Below, piece after piece: positions 4,051-33,011 of a stretch of DNA of 64,000 nt (its first letter is position 1; each line of letters begins with the position of its first letter). Source of the stretch: an uncultured virus (IMG/VR IMGVR_UViG_3300025009_000077) (Duplodnaviria > Heunggongvirae > Uroviricota > Caudoviricetes). The notes beneath the pieces were generated by a model. That model had not been told where the DNA came from. It did no database searches and worked only from the letters and a program-made list of their open reading frames with translations. The position numbers and the translations under genes are program-made. The stretch covers positions 1-64,000 of the IMG/VR virus record IMGVR_UViG_3300025009_000077; one strand, 5' to 3'.

Positions 4051-4076
4051 ACCCAATCCCAAAAGGATTGGGTTTA
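4051..4076 (+). terminator. intrinsic terminator ending the early block
   Basis: ACCCAATCC/GGATTGGGT stem then TT, abutting a late motif. Confidence 0.7.
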
Positions 4077-4121
4077 TATTATATTTGAGAACTGACTCTA
4101 TTTCATTTATATTATAAATAG
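4073..4121 (+). promoter_or_regulatory. tandem late promoter motifs (4073, 4106)
   Basis: TTTATATTATATTTGA and TTTATATTATAAATAG. Confidence 0.75.
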
Positions 4122-4137
4122 TAGAGAGGAATAAATA

Positions 4138-4743
4138 ATGAGAATTAAAAATAAATCATTAAAAAATACAGCTTATGTGTACCTATTAGGAAATCTAAAG
4201 ATAGCAGAAGATACGACTATAAACGTACCTTTACAATTTACAGAAGCTCAGGTAAGGGAAGCCATATCTCCTTTCCCAGACTTAGTTTTATTGGATGGGT
4301 ATGTTGTAAGTCAGGACGATATATTGGACGGTAAACAACTTGGTCATGACGGTATCATGGTTAAAGACGTTTACGATGCTAACTTAAATAACATAGTAGA
4401 CGAAGCTGAAGTTGCTTTATCTGGAGGAAACCCTTCAATAGAGTTAGATTTCATATATTCTGATTTTATCTCTGGTTCCTTAGATATCGGGATATTAAAA
4501 GCTAATTTAAATATAGAAGAAATAAAACTTATAATAGATAATCCTTTCGATGTGGGAAGTATAACAGTTGGGGATGCTGGAGACAATTCAAGATTAATGA
4601 CTTCTACCGATAATGATGTAACCTATGCAAGTAGCTACATAGTTGGAAGCGAATATGTATACCCAGCAGATACTACAGTAAAAATATACTTTACAGGAAA
4701 TCCTATAACTGGTTCTGGAAAGATTGTAATATTTTCAAGTTAG
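4138..4743 (+). CDS. putative virion structural protein
   Basis: Late motif upstream; C-terminal beta-rich domain resembles the C-terminus of the next protein. Confidence 0.55.
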   Translation: MRIKNKSLKNTAYVYLLGNLKIAEDTTINVPLQFTEAQVREAISPFPDLVLLDGYVVSQDDILDGKQLGHDGIMVKDVYDANLNNIVDEAEVALSGGNPSIELDFIYSDFISGSLDIGILKANLNIEEIKLIIDNPFDVGSITVGDAGDNSRLMTSTDNDVTYASSYIVGSEYVYPADTTVKIYFTGNPITGSGKIVIFSS

Positions 4744-4836: not shown

Positions 4837-7161
4837 ATGTCATTATTTTCAGTGTTATTAGGTACTATGAAAACTGATTTCTTAATCGGTGGTCCTAAAG
4901 GCATTATGCTTAGAAAAGTAACCAACGGTTTTGAAGTTAGAAGTTTTGATGGTTCGGCTTTAAAAAATCTTACAGTAGACAGTTTAACAGCCAATACTTC
5001 AGTTTTAACAGATACTATCACAGAAAAAACAACCGATGCTGGTGTTACCATTGAAACAGTTCTTATTAAAGATGGTTTAGTAGATGGTATGGATGTTTCA
5101 ACATTAGCAGTTGACTCCACAGTTATTAAAAAAGATGGTACGGTTGCATTTACGGCAGCTCAATCAATGGGTGGTTTTAAATTAACAAGTGTGGCAGACC
5201 CTACAGTAGCTCAAGATGCAGCCACAAAAGCATACGTAGACTCAGTAGCTCAGGGTTTAACAGTACATGCTCCTGTTAGACTAGCTAGTGTGGACGTGTT
5301 ACCTGCTTGTACACCTTCTGGTTCTCAAGTTGGTAAGACTTTAACAGCAGATGCTAATGGTGCTTTATCTATAGATGGTATTGCTGTTGTGGCAGGTGAT
5401 AGAATATTAGTTAAAAACCAAGTAGCAGGAGTAGATAACGGTATTTATGTTGTAACTGCTGTCGGTGATGTATCCAATCCATTCGTATTAACAAGAGCTA
5501 CAGATTTTGATGGAAGCCCTGCATCCGAAGTAGTATCGGGTTCATTCTTCTTCGTAGAAGCAGGTAGTACCTTAGCCGATGCAGGTTTTGTATTAACTAC
5601 AGATAATCCTATCACAGTTGATACAACAGCGTTAGCATTTGCTCAATTCTCTGGTGCTGGTCAAGTTCTGGCTGGTGATGGACTTTCAAAAACAGGTAAT
5701 ACCCTAAGTGTAAACGTAGATGCTACTACTATAGAAATTAATACAGATACGTTAAGAGTTAAAGACTTAGGAATATCTACAGCAAAATTAGCAAACGATT
5801 CAGTAGATAAAGATAAAATTAACGCTGATGTGGCGGGTTCTGGTTTAGGTCAAAATGTCGACGGTTCTTTAGAAGTTAAAGTCGACGATTCTACCATTGA
5901 AATAAATACAGATATATTAAGAGTTAAAGCTGGCGGAATCACAAACAACGAGGTTTCTGCTACAGCAGCTATAGCATGGTCTAAAATAGACAAAACAGGT
6001 TCTTCCTTAGCAGATTTAGCTACAAAAGCTTATACTGATTTAACTGGAAGACCTGCTGACGATAACTTTAATACATTAACAGAAGAAACAAGCATAGCAG
6101 ATGGAGATTTCTTACCTATATACGATGCTTCTGCTACAGCTTATAGAAAAATGCAAAAATCAAACTTGGTTGCTGGCTTGGCAGTCGATTCCGCAGTTGT
6201 CCACTTAGCTGGTGCTGAAGCAATAACTGGTCAAAAAGATTTCCAAGATGACCTTAAAACAGATAATATCTTAGAATCTACCCTTAACGCTGGTGTTACT
6301 GTTGATGGAGTTCTTATCAAAGACGGTTTAGTCGATGGTATGGATGTTTCAACATTAGCTACAGATTCAGCAGTTGTCCATTTATCAGGTGCTGAAGTTG
6401 TTACAGGTCAAAAAGATTTCTCGGGTGGTATAAAAACTGATGATATCGTAGAATCTACTCTTGATGCTGGTGTTACCATTGAAACAGTTCTTATTAAAGA
6501 TGGTTTAGTCGATGGTAAAGACGTTTCAACATTAGCTACAGATTCAGCAGTTGTCCATTTAGCTGGTACTGAAACAGTAACAGGAGACAAATCCTTCTCT
6601 GGAGCTGTTAAAGTGGACACTATCTCTGAATTAACACCTGCTAATGGTGTTAGCATAGACGGTGTTTTACTTAAAGATAGTAAAGTTTCTGGTAGTTATG
6701 TAGACATCGCTAGTCTAACGGCTGCAACATCAGCAGACGACAGTGATGAATTGTTAATTAACGATTCTGGCACTAACAAGAAAATAACAAAAGCTAACTT
6801 ACTTTCTGGTATCGCTACATCTAACGGTTTAGCAAAACACATAGCGATAACAGTTGGTACTTCGAGCGTAAGTTCCACTACATCAATCCCTGAAAATGCT
6901 ATTGTTAAATCAGTAACAACTAGAATAAACTCAGTTTATTCAGCAGGTGCTACTCTTCAAGTTATCGTAGACGGTGCTACCGACTTAGAAATTCAAGCTA
7001 CTGGAGATAATGATGCTGAAACAGCTAACGCATACGAATCAAGACCTTTCTTGACAGTAGGTGCAACTAACGTAGGTGTTGCTAGAGTCGTAGTAGCTGG
7101 TTCTCCTGTTATAGGTTCTGCTACGGTACTTATCGAATACGTAGAAGCTCCTTTAGCATAA
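4837..7161 (+). CDS. fiber/decoration structural protein with internal repeats
   Basis: DAATKAYVD, GDRILVKNQ..NGIYVV..TRATDFD and AGDGLSKTGNTL motifs typical of phage fibers; 59-aa repeats. Confidence 0.7.
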   Translation: MSLFSVLLGTMKTDFLIGGPKGIMLRKVTNGFEVRSFDGSALKNLTVDSLTANTSVLTDTITEKTTDAGVTIETVLIKDGLVDGMDVSTLAVDSTVIKKDGTVAFTAAQSMGGFKLTSVADPTVAQDAATKAYVDSVAQGLTVHAPVRLASVDVLPACTPSGSQVGKTLTADANGALSIDGIAVVAGDRILVKNQVAGVDNGIYVVTAVGDVSNPFVLTRATDFDGSPASEVVSGSFFFVEAGSTLADAGFVLTTDNPITVDTTALAFAQFSGAGQVLAGDGLSKTGNTLSVNVDATTIEINTDTLRVKDLGISTAKLANDSVDKDKINADVAGSGLGQNVDGSLEVKVDDSTIEINTDILRVKAGGITNNEVSATAAIAWSKIDKTGSSLADLATKAYTDLTGRPADDNFNTLTEETSIADGDFLPIYDASATAYRKMQKSNLVAGLAVDSAVVHLAGAEAITGQKDFQDDLKTDNILESTLNAGVTVDGVLIKDGLVDGMDVSTLATDSAVVHLSGAEVVTGQKDFSGGIKTDDIVESTLDAGVTIETVLIKDGLVDGKDVSTLATDSAVVHLAGTETVTGDKSFSGAVKVDTISELTPANGVSIDGVLLKDSKVSGSYVDIASLTAATSADDSDELLINDSGTNKKITKANLLSGIATSNGLAKHIAITVGTSSVSSTTSIPENAIVKSVTTRINSVYSAGATLQVIVDGATDLEIQATGDNDAETANAYESRPFLTVGATNVGVARVVVAGSPVIGSATVLIEYVEAPLA
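6286..6680 (+). repeat. 177-nt (59-aa) tandem coding repeats, with a dispersed copy near 5035
   Basis: GVT[IV]..VLIKDGLVDG.DVSTLA units at 6286, 6463 and partly 6640; 5035-5081 matches 6463-6509. Confidence 0.85.
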
Positions 7162-7181
7162 TAGTTAATCTAAAAAATAAA

Positions 7182-7215
7182 TAAACAAGAGGGTGTAAAA
7201 AGCCCTCTTGTTTTA
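7182..7215 (+). terminator. intrinsic terminator
   Basis: AAACAAGAGGG/CCCTCTTGTTT stem. Confidence 0.75.
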
Positions 7216-7225
7216 TTATGGTTGA

Positions 7226-7241
7226 TTTATATTATATTTAG
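7226..7241 (+). promoter_or_regulatory. late promoter motif
   Basis: TTTATATTATATTTAG. Confidence 0.75.
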
Positions 7242-7269
7242 GGAATGGTATTTTACGAGGAAATTAAAT

Positions 7270-7725
7270 ATGATAGATTTAGGTGCTACTACATTAAAAG
7301 ATTGTTTATCCTTTTTAAGTATACCAGCTTACTATGCCAGTAGCATTGGTATCATAGTATTAATTATAAAATATGCAGGTAAGTGGATATTTAAGAAAGT
7401 AGTAGAAGATATAATTAAAAAATATTATGAGGACAATTTGCAAAAAGGGGTAAGCTCTGAGATAGATAAAAAAGTAAAAGACTGTAAAGAAGAATTAAAA
7501 GAAGAATTAAAAGAAGAAATATTTGAAGAAACAGAGAATTTAATAGAGAACCATACTATTAAATGTAAAAATACTAACTTAGAACACAATGACCAAAGAT
7601 ATCTATTGAGACAAGAGTTCAAAATGTTCTTAGACAGTCAAGCAAAAACTAATGAAAAATTAGAGATATCTATATCTGAGATAAGAAATACATGTAATCA
7701 GATATTGTTAAAATTAACAGATTAA
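7270..7725 (+). CDS. single-TM coiled-coil membrane protein, holin candidate
   Basis: Hydrophobic N-terminus then charged coiled coil; own late motif; start moved to ATG 7270 after GAGG. Confidence 0.45.
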   Translation: MIDLGATTLKDCLSFLSIPAYYASSIGIIVLIIKYAGKWIFKKVVEDIIKKYYEDNLQKGVSSEIDKKVKDCKEELKEELKEEIFEETENLIENHTIKCKNTNLEHNDQRYLLRQEFKMFLDSQAKTNEKLEISISEIRNTCNQILLKLTD

Positions 7726-7770
7726 TCATTACTCGTATATCATCTGTATAAATCGAAATACGTAGTCGTT

Positions 7771-7795
7771 ATAGAGCCTTTATGAGGCTCTATTT
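7771..7795. terminator. hairpin/terminator between convergent units
   Basis: ATAGAGCCT/AGGCTCTAT stem. Confidence 0.6.
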
Positions 7796-7814
7796 CTATA
7801 TTCAAAATATAACA

Positions 7815-7897
7815 AATAAAAACTGAGCAGTAAAGGAGGAAACCTGCTCAGAAAAACTTCATAGTAAATTGTATATAGTATTCAATTATAATATAAA
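7815..7897 (-). ncRNA. candidate late small RNA with anti-SD loop (promoter plus terminator unit)
   Basis: Minus-strand TTTATATTATAATTGA (7897-7882), then CTGAGCAG-GTTTCCTCCTTTA-CTGCTCAG-TTTTT. Confidence 0.45.
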
Positions 7898-7907
7898 ATA
7901 CAATTTC

Positions 7908-8111
7908 TTATATTATTAAATTTTTTGCTGTTTCTAATAAACTTTTTGCTGTTAATTGTACTTCTGAATCTTTATCAATATTTGCTAGATTAATAAAAGT
8001 ACAGATTAAAGACTTCAATAACTCTTCCCTATTTTCCCCAGACTGGTAAAGTTCAAAAACCAGCTCCTCTAGGCTATCCTTCCCTAAACCCATTATCCAG
8101 TATCCTCTCAA
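7908..8111 (-). CDS. hypothetical protein
   Basis: ORF co-oriented with and overlapping the DenV-like gene. Confidence 0.5.
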   Translation of the reverse strand: MRGYWIMGLGKDSLEELVFELYQSGENREELLKSLICTFINLANIDKDSEVQLTAKSLLETAKNLII

Positions 8112-8730
8112 TCAGTATTTGCTCTTCTAAAGTTAAGTTACCTAAGGATACCCAACTATCCTCTAATTTTTTTTGTATAACAATACCTGTATCACTATCC
8201 CTGTATATTCTTAAATTGGTACCTATGTGTTCAAAATAATCCATGTATAGAGTTCTCTGGGTCTCGTCTAATTTATTTAAAAACCAATCTGGAGCTTTTT
8301 GTCTATAATTGGATATTTTAGCTTTTTCCATAACATAATAATTTCTATAGGCTTCTACAGAATTTCCTTCCATTTTATACCTATCTGGAAGTAACTGAGG
8401 AAATTCCATAAGTCCTCCTTTGGGTAATTCAGGAACTATAATGGAAGATAAATCTATAGTAGTATTATGATATTTACCATAAATGGTATAAAAATGACGT
8501 TGCACGGATTGAGCGTATTCTACTAACCATTCAAAATTAGATTTAGAGATACTAGCCCAACTAACTACAGCGTTACTTTTATTTATTACTTTTTGAGGCA
8601 TAGAAGAATCGGTGTAATTTTCCAATACCGTACAAATTACAGTACAAGCACTTCCCAGTTGACAAGATAGATGTTTATCCGACAAATAGATTCCTGCTAA
8701 TTCTGGATTATTGTCTAAAAAATAAATCAT
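8074..8730 (-). CDS. pyrimidine-dimer DNA glycosylase / endonuclease V (DenV)-family protein
   Basis: MIYFLDNNP..A....DKH, W...S..NFEWL, PQ.LPD.Y, VEAYRNYY...K motifs. Confidence 0.75.
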   Translation of the reverse strand: MIYFLDNNPELAGIYLSDKHLSCQLGSACTVICTVLENYTDSSMPQKVINKSNAVVSWASISKSNFEWLVEYAQSVQRHFYTIYGKYHNTTIDLSSIIVPELPKGGLMEFPQLLPDRYKMEGNSVEAYRNYYVMEKAKISNYRQKAPDWFLNKLDETQRTLYMDYFEHIGTNLRIYRDSDTGIVIQKKLEDSWVSLGNLTLEEQILIERILDNGFREG

Positions 8731-8762
8731 AATTTTAATATTTCCTTATTTATTATATATAC

Positions 8763-8826
8763 ATTGTAACATATTGTTAATGTTTTGTCAAGATGTATTG
8801 ATATAATTGATTATTGGTGGTATGAT
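8763..8826. promoter_or_regulatory. divergent sigma70-type promoters
   Basis: Minus strand TTGACA(8791-8786)-N17-TACAAT; plus strand TTGATA(8798)-N17-TATGAT; both with TG. Confidence 0.7.
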
Positions 8827-8850
8827 ATACACTATATTAAGGAGTTAATT

Positions 8851-9186
8851 ATGAATGATTTAGATTGCCAAATAACCCTCTGGAACAAGAACTTAACTAA
8901 TTACTACAATCCAAAAAGAGTGGCAGAGATTAGATACTACAGTAAAAACAGGCTTTCATTTAAATTATATATTAAAAAAGAAAGTGAACTATTAGATAAC
9001 AATTTTAGAAAATTTTTTCAGGATAAAAGAAACAGTACTAAGTTAGGGGGAATTTTAAAAAAATTATTAAACGATTATAAATTTATTCAAGATTCTGGGT
9101 CATTCTTCAAAGGATTTTTTAACCCGATAAATTGGAAAAGATATGAGAAAGATTATATAGTTTACGAATATTTTATATCTAAGTAA
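8851..9186 (+). CDS. hypothetical protein
   Basis: Start moved to ATG 8851 after AGGAG, downstream of the promoter. Confidence 0.6.
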   Translation: MNDLDCQITLWNKNLTNYYNPKRVAEIRYYSKNRLSFKLYIKKESELLDNNFRKFFQDKRNSTKLGGILKKLLNDYKFIQDSGSFFKGFFNPINWKRYEKDYIVYEYFISK

Positions 9187-9188
9187 GG

Positions 9189-9204
9189 TTTATATTATAT
9201 TTAG
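9189..9204 (+). promoter_or_regulatory. late promoter motif
   Basis: TTTATATTATATTTAG. Confidence 0.75.
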
Positions 9205-10911: not shown

Positions 10912-11316
10912 ATGTCTTTAGATTTTATAAAACAGATAATGGATAAGTTAGATTTAGAAAAAGAAGATGTTCTTCATGACGAAGAAGAGGAAATAATTAA
11001 ATCAGATATCTACGATGTCATGAAAATTTTAGACAGGTATAAAAAAGAGGAAGCTTTAGGAAAGTTGTATAAAGCAAAATTTGATTATCATAGAGACGGT
11101 AATTCTATATGCTTAATAGTTAGTTTTAACAATCTTAAGAAAACAGATAGATTACATAACCTATTTAATTCTGAATTTATTCAGAATCTTTTCAATGAAT
11201 TAGCAGAGTTAAATATTAGTAATAATTTTAAAAAAAGAATAGCAGATAAAAGAAATTATAAGTTAGACTTATTTGGAGATATGGGAGTTTATAAAACTCC
11301 TTATTATAGAGTTTAA
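10912..11316 (+). CDS. hypothetical late protein
   Basis: ORF after late motif. Confidence 0.6.
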   Translation: MSLDFIKQIMDKLDLEKEDVLHDEEEEIIKSDIYDVMKILDRYKKEEALGKLYKAKFDYHRDGNSICLIVSFNNLKKTDRLHNLFNSEFIQNLFNELAELNISNNFKKRIADKRNYKLDLFGDMGVYKTPYYRV

Positions 11317-11356
11317 TATTATATAAATATATTTATATTTCTTTTCTCTTTAGAGA

Positions 11357-11418
11357 ATTAATCTTAATAACAAGAAATGAAACTATACAAACTTACATAG
11401 TAGTAATTGTATCTTGTC
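11357..11418 (+). repeat. 62-bp perfect direct repeat, copy 1
   Basis: Identical to 11775-11836. Confidence 0.95.
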
Positions 11419-11440
11419 GGAAACTGAAGGAATTAAAATC

Positions 11441-11469
11441 TTGACATAATTGTTATAATATGCTAAAAT
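11441..11469 (+). promoter_or_regulatory. sigma70-type promoter with no downstream ORF
   Basis: TTGACA-N17-TAAAAT with TG. Confidence 0.7.
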
Positions 11470-11474
11470 GTTAT

Positions 11475-11836
11475 CAGATGGGTAAAATGCTGAAGAAATG
11501 GTTAATACTCTTCTGTATGCAACAACGAAATCTCCCTGTAAGTAAATTGTTAAACCATCTCGTAGAGATGAATGTACTGGGTGAAACGCTGATAAAAAAA
11601 GCAATCTCACTTAAATAGTTACAGAAGTTTCCCATACAGTTGTTCTTTTAAAGCCCTAACCTGTTATAATAATAGGTTAAAAAGCACGTTCACAGTTATC
11701 TCTCTTTGAGGAGAATAGGTTATTAATACCTGTTAAGAAGAGTAAGCTTGGATTGTATATGGAAAACTACTATCATTAATCTTAATAACAAGAAATGAAA
11801 CTATACAAACTTACATAGTAGTAATTGTATCTTGTC
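11475..11836 (+). ncRNA. candidate structured ncRNA or origin-priming transcript
   Basis: Promoter, multiple nested stems, no credible + strand ORF. Confidence 0.4.
11775..11836 (+). repeat. 62-bp perfect direct repeat, copy 2
   Basis: Identical to 11357-11418. Confidence 0.95.
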
Positions 11837-11943
11837 ATCACTGACTTTAGGCTAAATTACTTTTGCTCATTGACCACACTCTGTCATCTTAGCGTTTTGT
11901 AATACTTGCCTCATTTTAATTAAAATTTAATCTTGTAACGGTA

Positions 11944-11972
11944 TTGACATATCCTTTGTGTTATGTTATAAT
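11944..11972 (+). promoter_or_regulatory. sigma70-type promoter
   Basis: TTGACA-N17-TATAAT with TG. Confidence 0.8.
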
Positions 11973-11996
11973 GTTGTTATGGGTGAATATTGAGGA

Positions 11997-32466: not shown

Positions 32467-32532
32467 TTTATATTATAATTACTAAGGGACAACCGAGAGG
32501 TCTGTCCCATTTTTGTTTTATATTATATTTAG
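32467..32532 (+). promoter_or_regulatory. late motif - hairpin terminator - late motif
   Basis: Motifs at 32467 and 32517 flank GGGACA-ACC-GAGA-GGT-C-TGTCCC-ATTTTT. Confidence 0.7.
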
Positions 32533-32549: not shown

Positions 32550-33011
32550 ATGTCGTCAATTCTTACAGATTTATTGCAGATTTTTACGGATTTAACACCA
32601 GATATTTTAGACATATACGAAGATTTGTTTGGACTCCCTTGTAGTGTATACTTACCAGATAAGTTGGATGATATGTTTGATGATTTTGGAAAAGTAAGAT
32701 ATAAGGCTATTCCAGATGAAACGAATAGAAAAATCCTTATAGTTAATTTTATAAAACCAGATGCTATGAGAGGAAATTTAACTCAGTTTGAAAGCTTCTT
32801 TGGAGACGAAAGACCTTACATAATAACTCATGAACAGAAAAGGATACCCCCAAGAGCTAGGATAGATGCTTTCTTAGGAGGGGCTAAGATGTCTTTCCAA
32901 ACAGAAATAGATAAAGTGGTTACTGGTGCCTTAGCTACAGATGCTAATGGAGTTGTTACTGGAGACCACAGCACTATTATGATTAAACAATACTTACGTC
33001 CACTTACTTAA
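32550..33011 (+). CDS. putative head-tail connector (gp14-like)
   Basis: FGLPCSVYLP pattern; synteny before terminator and sheath. Confidence 0.45.
   Translation: MSSILTDLLQIFTDLTPDILDIYEDLFGLPCSVYLPDKLDDMFDDFGKVRYKAIPDETNRKILIVNFIKPDAMRGNLTQFESFFGDERPYIITHEQKRIPPRARIDAFLGGAKMSFQTEIDKVVTGALATDANGVVTGDHSTIMIKQYLRPLT

Follow-up and report, generated by a model that had tools for sequence, protein, structure and literature searches.

What does a phage do with a terminator-like hairpin that displays an anti-Shine-Dalgarno sequence in its loop and lies just behind a promoter motif pointing into an intergenic gap? We addressed this question for a locus in a stretch of 64,000 nt from an uncultured virus (IMG/VR IMGVR_UViG_3300025009_000077; this whole stretch is the window below). 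To our knowledge, regulatory RNAs have hardly been explored in lytic phages, and we are aware of none reported from distant T4-like phages whose hosts are uncultured. At about 31% G+C, the window carries nearly all of its genes on the plus strand; its PHROG matches comprise structural proteins (major head protein, head maturation protease, tail sheath, tail tube, baseplate parts, and tail fibres) as well as an endolysin, helicases, DNA polymerase, and ligase. The capsid protein shares 37% identity with the capsids of T4-like Rhizobium phages and matched hundreds of cyanophage records. This gene content and the capsid matches mark the source phage as a large myovirus of a distant T4-like kind. 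A virus record of 158,517 bp that is nearly identical (G001) spans positions 1-48,762 of the window in reverse orientation and includes, on its minus strand, three paralogues of about 740 aa (L010 13050-15290, L010 15308-17518, and L011 6988-9201; PHROG 27227, E 1e-91 to 6e-124). The locus is also present in a relative of about 88% DNA identity (G002, 190,151 bp, with terminal repeats and rated complete), whose copy is L003 below. Relatives are otherwise scarce: a DNA search of GenBank phages with positions 7000-9200 gave no match, and the same phages returned only short AT-rich chance matches (best E 0.02) when the 94-nt stretch was the query; viral contigs yielded three close relatives only, plus one contig ending within gene 1; the species genomes searched held no relative of the locus; and one metagenome scan provided L018, L019, and L020 as further lineages. 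At the protein level, ten additional homologues of gene 1 share 53-74% identity with it. Since most changes are common to L003 and L004, these two are not mutually independent, and the independent lineages compared here are three, namely the window group, L020, and L018/L019. The features on which the argument turns are the following.

8752..8791, minus strand: two overlapping sigma70-type promoters (TTGACA-17-TACAAT with TG; TTAACA-17-TATAAT), predicted to drive the minus-strand operon
8074..8730, minus strand: gene 1, 218 aa, PHROG 624 'DNA binding protein', no Pfam match
7908..8093, minus strand: small gene of 61 aa, overlapped by the last part of gene 1 and matching no family; its stop codon ends at 7908
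7897-7882, minus strand: putative phage promoter motif TTTATATTATAATTGA of the structural-gene class, between stop codon and hairpin (11-mer part, 7897-7887)
7881-7852, minus strand: 30-nt leader of the candidate RNA, invariant in L003 and with one change in L004
7851-7844, minus strand: 5' arm of the hairpin, CTGAGCAG
7843-7831, minus strand: 13-nt hairpin loop, GTTTCCTCCTTTA (GUUUCCUCCUUUA), anti-Shine-Dalgarno
7830-7823, minus strand: 3' arm of the hairpin, CTGCTCAG
7822-7814, minus strand: U tract UUUUUAUUU (TTTTTATTT; TTTTT at 7822-7818, then ATTT), completing the intrinsic terminator
7771..7793, plus strand: separate hairpin, the terminator of the convergent plus-strand gene, ordinary and fast-evolving, used as a contrast
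7226..7725, plus strand: convergent gene (7267-7725, 152 aa) preceded by a motif copy of its own (7226-7241); synteny is kept in L018 and L020
32467-32549, plus strand: stop codon, motif copy, terminator (GNRA loop GAGA), and second motif copy, followed by the gene at 32550

The stem of the minus-strand hairpin has eight perfect pairs, five of them G-C, and RNAfold retains it with the 13-nt loop open; the loop is likewise unpaired in the predicted folds of all three lineages. The region 7770-7910, which also takes in the second hairpin, folds at -38 kcal/mol (z -6.09), and the 64-nt candidate RNA at -12.7 kcal/mol (z -2.83), a stability equalled by 2 of 200 shuffles. Both the perfect 8-bp stem with a 13-nt loop and U5 tail some 30 nt past the motif and the lack of a credible reading frame between promoter and terminator, as described in an initial annotation of this DNA, are borne out: the sole frame from motif to hairpin is AUG AAG UUU UUC UGA (4 codons), which has no Shine-Dalgarno sequence and is absent in L020. 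Within the 173,755-nt composite of the window and the near-identical record, 57 hairpins combine a perfect stem of at least 6 bp with a CTCC loop, and among these the 7851-7823 hairpin alone has an 8-bp stem with five G-C pairs followed by a T run. Its loop, complementary to UAAAGGAGGAAAC, has CCUCCUUU (core CUCCUUUA) in common with the usual 3' tail of 16S rRNA. If initiation is spaced as at other copies of the motif, the candidate RNA would be about 60 nt long, starting near 7877 and ending near 7814-7818. When RNA evidence was sought, four sequencing runs gave two contigs, both from one run, that cover 6779-6977 only and do not reach the locus, a result that speaks neither for nor against such an RNA.

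How the motif is to be read depends on its distribution. We counted 19 copies of the 11-mer TTTATATTATA in the window, where 0.92 +/- 0.99 would be expected; none of 100 shuffles reached this number. Eighteen of these copies lie on the plus strand and one, at 7897-7887, on the minus strand, as the initial annotation had noticed in describing a single minus-strand copy directed into an intergenic gap. The plus-strand copies are found in gaps, 30-80 nt ahead of a start codon or of a second copy and often just past a terminator, and the genes behind motif copies include those for a fibre (4837), the capsid (21798), the sheath region (33958), tube-proximal genes, and the baseplate (44846, 47441). 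In G001, 22 of 24 copies are on the gene-rich strand, and the second opposite-strand copy stands ahead of an ordinary gene on that strand; 17 of the 24 extend as WWTAG, giving TATAWWTAG, a form that resembles the late promoter of T4 (TATAAATA), whose reader is gp55. In the copy at 7897-7882 the 3' part is ATTGA rather than the commonest WWTAG, as it also is in the copies at 4073 and 4758, and the corresponding part in L020 is ACCAT. The motif is kept ahead of orthologous genes in L018, L020, and L024, and no TTTATATTATA copy occurs in the replication-gene region (50-64 kb). Near-consensus sigma70-type promoters, on the other side, number 18 against 4.9 +/- 2.1 in shuffles, and are located in the replication-gene region, at the primase gene, and at the minus-strand operon; L018 has TTGCAA-17-TATAAT at the equivalent operon promoter position. 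With the motif ahead of structural genes and sigma70-type sites ahead of replication genes and the operon, the phage has, as far as its sequence signals tell, two promoter classes, which we call 'early' and 'late' from the genes that they appear to serve. Counts, positions, and orthologous genes in relatives support reading the motif, called late in the initial annotation, as a phage promoter of the structural-gene class; we regard it as a promoter-like signal and infer that transcription would begin from it. A 175-aa protein with sigma70 region 4 (PF04545, 1.7e-13; PHROG 351), encoded at G001 L015 14923-15450 on the minus strand, is the sole sigma-like protein found among stronger matches of ORFs of at least 110 aa, and may be what recognizes one of the two promoter classes. 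T4 gp55 is not known to have a sigma70 region 4.

The motif also occurs in other settings. The arrangement at 32467 is kept in G002, where one stem pair is changed on both sides and one loop base is changed, the loop becoming GAAA; this pairing of motif and terminator has no evident RNA role, so that a promoter ahead of a terminator is not unique to the locus at 7897. Tandem copies 33 nt apart lie at 4073-4121 on the plus strand, just past a terminator and ahead of the gene at 4138. On the minus strand of G001, L014 3791-5175 holds 14 tRNA genes and a permuted two-piece tmRNA (RF04321, 93.8 bits; ARAGORN tag GNNTVSLDFGRKMALVA, then stop), with an additional tRNA-Trp at L012 7304-7381; a TTTATATTATA copy at L014 5525 (minus strand) lies about 350 nt upstream of the tRNA/tmRNA cluster, and the motif may thus also drive RNA genes. 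As to sigma70-type sites, two near-consensus promoters (11441 and 11944) fall in a 680-nt gap without a credible gene (window 11317-11996), in which a perfect 62-nt direct repeat (11357-11418, 11775-11836) surrounds a 356-nt insert-like segment; a 115-nt run that is identical in the 88% relative (11263-11377) overlaps this gap, for which a small mobile insert, an origin, and an RNA region are all conceivable.

On the minus strand, the 7851-7823 hairpin is the only one with a U tract downstream of the two-gene operon (8730-7908), whose small gene has orthologues in L020 (61 aa) and L018. The G+C-rich stem followed by a U tract, 57 nt past the small-gene stop codon, is what an intrinsic terminator is expected to show; the 13-nt loop is longer than the 3-8 nt common in terminators, and a consensus terminator scanner, which considers loops of 3-8 nt, does not list the hairpin. 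By these sequence features it is the sole terminator of the operon. Being the terminator of an early operon, it follows that the anti-Shine-Dalgarno loop would be made early, whatever the motif does.

Comparison with the close relatives L003 and L004 indicates how unevenly this region evolves. Relative to the window, gene 1 differs by 12%, the small gene by 8-11%, the spacer past the U tract (7813-7794) by 30%, and the neighbouring terminator (7771-7793) by 17-23%, with compensatory pairs; such compensatory changes in that terminator are seen in L003 and L020. From the stop codon to the hairpin only 1-2 of 56 positions differ, the motif being unchanged, and in the hairpin with its U tract none of 38. 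The 95-nt identical run at 7811-7905 is the second longest in 6.6 kb with an overall difference of 12.4%. At two other copies of the motif in a close relative, the motif is invariant and the leaders diverge by 16% and 37%. The promoter-hairpin stretch is the best-conserved segment of the locus, and its conservation from promoter to U tail, as read from these alignments, argues against a plain terminator.

The distant lineages separate what is constant from what is free to vary. L020, a metagenome contig with 58% identity in the gene 1 protein and 65-68% DNA identity in the genes, displays the same order as the window: stop codon, TTTATATTATA (11/11), leader (partly kept as ATATACAA and TACTAT), hairpin, and U tract (AUUUUUUU, with a T7 run). 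Two pairs of its stem, CGGGCAG/CTGCCCG, are changed on both sides with respect to the window, and its loop, ATTTCCTCCTTTA, keeps 12 of 13 bases. In L018 and L019 (52% and 48% protein identity, respectively) the hairpin begins at the stop codon and has the stem GTATGAG/CTCACAC, which extends outward in the predicted fold; three pairs are changed on both sides and one cell is A.C, which is G.U on the other strand, while the loop, TTATCTCCTTTA or UUAUCUCCUUUA, retains the core CUCCUUUA. This hairpin has no U tract and a separate 10-bp terminator lies downstream; it is thus kept in these lineages without terminator duty. Upstream of the hairpin, L018 and L019 have no TTTATATTATA, only a TATAAATAG overlapping the next stem. 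It follows that the conserved element is the 3'-UTR hairpin and the separate promoter an addition in two of the three lineages, and that a separate small RNA is not a conserved feature. Counted by eye from the sequences of the three lineages, because MAFFT moved the one-base difference in loop length to the sequence ends, changes on both sides are found in 5 of 7 stem pairs, and 10 of 12 loop columns do not vary, CTCCTTTACT being fixed. The pattern supports selection on the loop sequence and, in two lineages, on the promoter motif and leader as well. The initial annotation had proposed checking the loop in related phages, and had counted a loop that is not conserved against its small RNA; since the loop is kept in three lineages while the stems covary, that objection fails. 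Its independent small RNA stands in part, with motif, leader, and hairpin conserved in two lineages and the motif absent upstream of the hairpin in L018 and L019. Pattern searches for the motif followed by the loop gave, in viral contigs with TYTCCTCCTTTA, seven loci, of which three are the known close relatives and four are unrelated ribosome sites read backward; in species genomes with CTCCTTTACT, they gave 27 loci, which we take as chance because none has a stem of more than 6 pairs and a U tract.

Is the hairpin then anything beyond a terminator? That it is a plain intrinsic terminator of the operon, its loop having no function of its own and the 3'-UTR motif being inactive or incidental, is somewhat unlikely, yet deserves the closest weighing. 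No other U-tract hairpin lies downstream of the operon, the motif copy at 32467 also precedes a terminator with no evident RNA product, and the target searches described below gave no result. Moreover, 12 of 13 loop bases kept in L020 is only marginally unusual (about 0.05, an estimate) against a background identity of about 0.68. Such a reading must, however, account for a stretch far better kept than two ordinary terminators of the same genomes, for a leader conserved along with it, and for a fixed loop within a covarying stem in three lineages; a loop of 13 nt is also large when most strong terminators of the genome have loops of 3-9 nt. The initial annotation had allowed that the hairpin might merely end the 8730-7908 transcript: it is indeed the sole terminator there, but L018 keeps the hairpin although another one terminates.

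We therefore turn to a regulatory role. A stretch far better conserved than the surrounding genes and equipped with its own promoter is probably a small RNA that blocks translation. According to the model that we favour, the hairpin would be an RNA element at the 3' end of the early operon that doubles as its intrinsic terminator, its large loop displaying a conserved anti-Shine-Dalgarno sequence whose core, CUCCUUUA, would be that of the usual 16S rRNA tail. This element could be made by two routes: as the tail of an early mRNA begun at the sigma70-type promoters near 8790 and, in the window phage and one distant lineage, as a separate RNA of about 60 nt begun at the phage promoter ahead of the hairpin. 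Ribosome-binding sites of the GGAG type, in messages of the phage or of the host, would then be bound by the loop, and translation initiation would be blocked. To the whole proposition, a 3'-end anti-Shine-Dalgarno hairpin that serves as terminator and, in two lineages, as an RNA of about 60 nt, most likely blocking ribosome-binding sites, we give about an even chance of being right; a late, separate small RNA acting as translation repressor is the best-supported, still tentative reading of the element. The locus is in any case a small, sharply bounded, and strongly conserved candidate, in which the terminator loop is at the same time the anti-ribosome-site loop and both early- and late-class promoters appear to be present. 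Should it work as proposed, phages would re-use an mRNA 3' end as a translation-control RNA, and CCUCC in terminator loops would offer a sequence signature for similar elements in phage genomes; should it be a terminator only, its unusual conservation would still call for explanation.

Pairing partners were sought with both loop and leader. A search of the window for sites complementary to the loop placed the best ones mostly within genes; many GGAG sites can pair with it and none is prominent. Neither the leader nor the whole 64-nt RNA gave a target above chance, and within the loci no site covaries with the loop variant of L018. The ribosome sites of gene 1 and of the small gene themselves offer only 5-7 generic pairs with the loop. 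The AAAGGAG ribosome sites to which the initial annotation had pointed ahead of 392, 30078, and 60227 are all present, and 53630 likewise has a strong ribosome site ahead of it; a specific early target, which it had also envisaged, did not emerge from the complementarity search of the window or from the covariation search. A broader version of the model, distinctly unlikely in our estimation, extends to many mRNAs: as a mimic of the 16S tail, supplied early as an mRNA tail and later boosted by its promoter, the loop would compete with ribosomes for their strong Shine-Dalgarno sequences and so shift translation off early or host messages.

Less probable again is a purely cis-acting 3'-UTR element, whose loop would pair with a ribosome site of its own mRNA and thereby limit translation or set decay, as in the precedent of icaR (PMC3868564). 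It would suit the position of the hairpin 3' of the small gene in three lineages, asks for no promoter of its own in L018, and finds 5-6 possible pairs between the loop and the small-gene ribosome site (GAGAGGA or GAAAGGA). Yet that complementarity is generic and does not follow the L018 loop variant, the gene 1 ribosome site differs among lineages, and the conserved promoter motif and leader are left unexplained. We see a slimmer prospect for a block that owes its identity to protein binding (for example, of an operon protein) or to recent recombination, instead of a pairing RNA. The block is identical in close relatives and has sharp edges, gene 1 belongs to a PHROG family named 'DNA binding protein', and a 95-nt identical run could arise by recent recombination; against this, the limits of the block coincide with stop codon and U tract, a search by eye for repeats gave no operator-like site, and recombination leaves unexplained L020 and L018, where stems differ yet the loop is kept. 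It is very improbable that the plus strand is the functional one, its hairpin presenting the perfect ribosome-binding sequence UAAAGGAGGAAAC to start an unannotated tiny gene or to act as a ribosome-binding decoy when late transcripts read through. No site in the window comes closer to an ideal ribosome site than UAAAGGAGGAAAC, and the L018 stem is fully paired (with G.U) only on this strand (-26.1 vs. -23.7 kcal/mol for the two-hairpin stretch). Against this, the plus-strand hairpin lies past the terminator of the convergent gene and has A runs after it, in two lineages the U tract belongs to the minus strand, and a plus-strand gene behind the loop was rejected, as no ATG, GTG, or TTG occurs 4-12 nt downstream and the frames after the loop (6, about 27, and 3 codons) are unrelated among the three lineages.

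The preferred reading, an anti-Shine-Dalgarno hairpin that blocks ribosome-binding sites, can be set beside several known systems. In LhrC of Listeria monocytogenes (RF00616), the CU-rich terminator loop is a proven binding site for the ribosome-site region of a target, whose translation is blocked (PMC4132741); by analogy, the loop described here would most likely pair with ribosome sites and block translation in the same manner. Unlike LhrC, the element is about 60 nt long, has one site rather than three, is phage-encoded, and ends at a terminator that also serves an mRNA. Nor does it belong to the family, as RF00616 scores 16.8 bits on the locus (E 4.4) against a gathering score of 110. Across the whole window, no Rfam family reached its gathering score, and permissive E-values gave chance-level rows only. 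The 3' UTR of icaR in Staphylococcus aureus likewise places an anti-Shine-Dalgarno sequence in an mRNA 3' UTR: its UCCCCUG motif pairs with the ribosome site of the same mRNA, blocks translation initiation, and yields an RNase III substrate (PMC3868564). The present locus departs from it in that complementarity to its own sites is generic and a separate promoter appears to be present.

DapZ and MicL are small RNAs derived from 3' UTRs; each is transcribed from a separate promoter, located within or past the preceding gene, and has its terminator in common with the mRNA. The promoter at a gene end, the shared terminator, and the possibility of producing the same RNA end from a longer mRNA are all features in which our candidate resembles them; it differs in that its promoter is a phage motif of the structural-gene class that follows an early operon, and in using the terminator loop as the putative pairing region. 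RsaE/RoxS and RNAIII expose C-rich loops with UCCC motifs that pair with ribosome sites; no kinship in sequence or structure links them to the present hairpin, whose loop copies the full CCUCCUUU of the 16S tail. In T4, early mRNAs are inactivated by the endoribonuclease RegB, which acts through the GGAG in their ribosome sites. That nuclease is a protein, whereas the locus described here would supply an RNA to mask such sites; if the 16S-tail mimic were true, the outcome would be the same and the element would be an RNA counterpart of RegB. Overall, the element is closest in its proposed action to anti-Shine-Dalgarno regulators of the LhrC/RsaE type and to small RNAs derived from 3' UTRs, and is a member of none of these groups.
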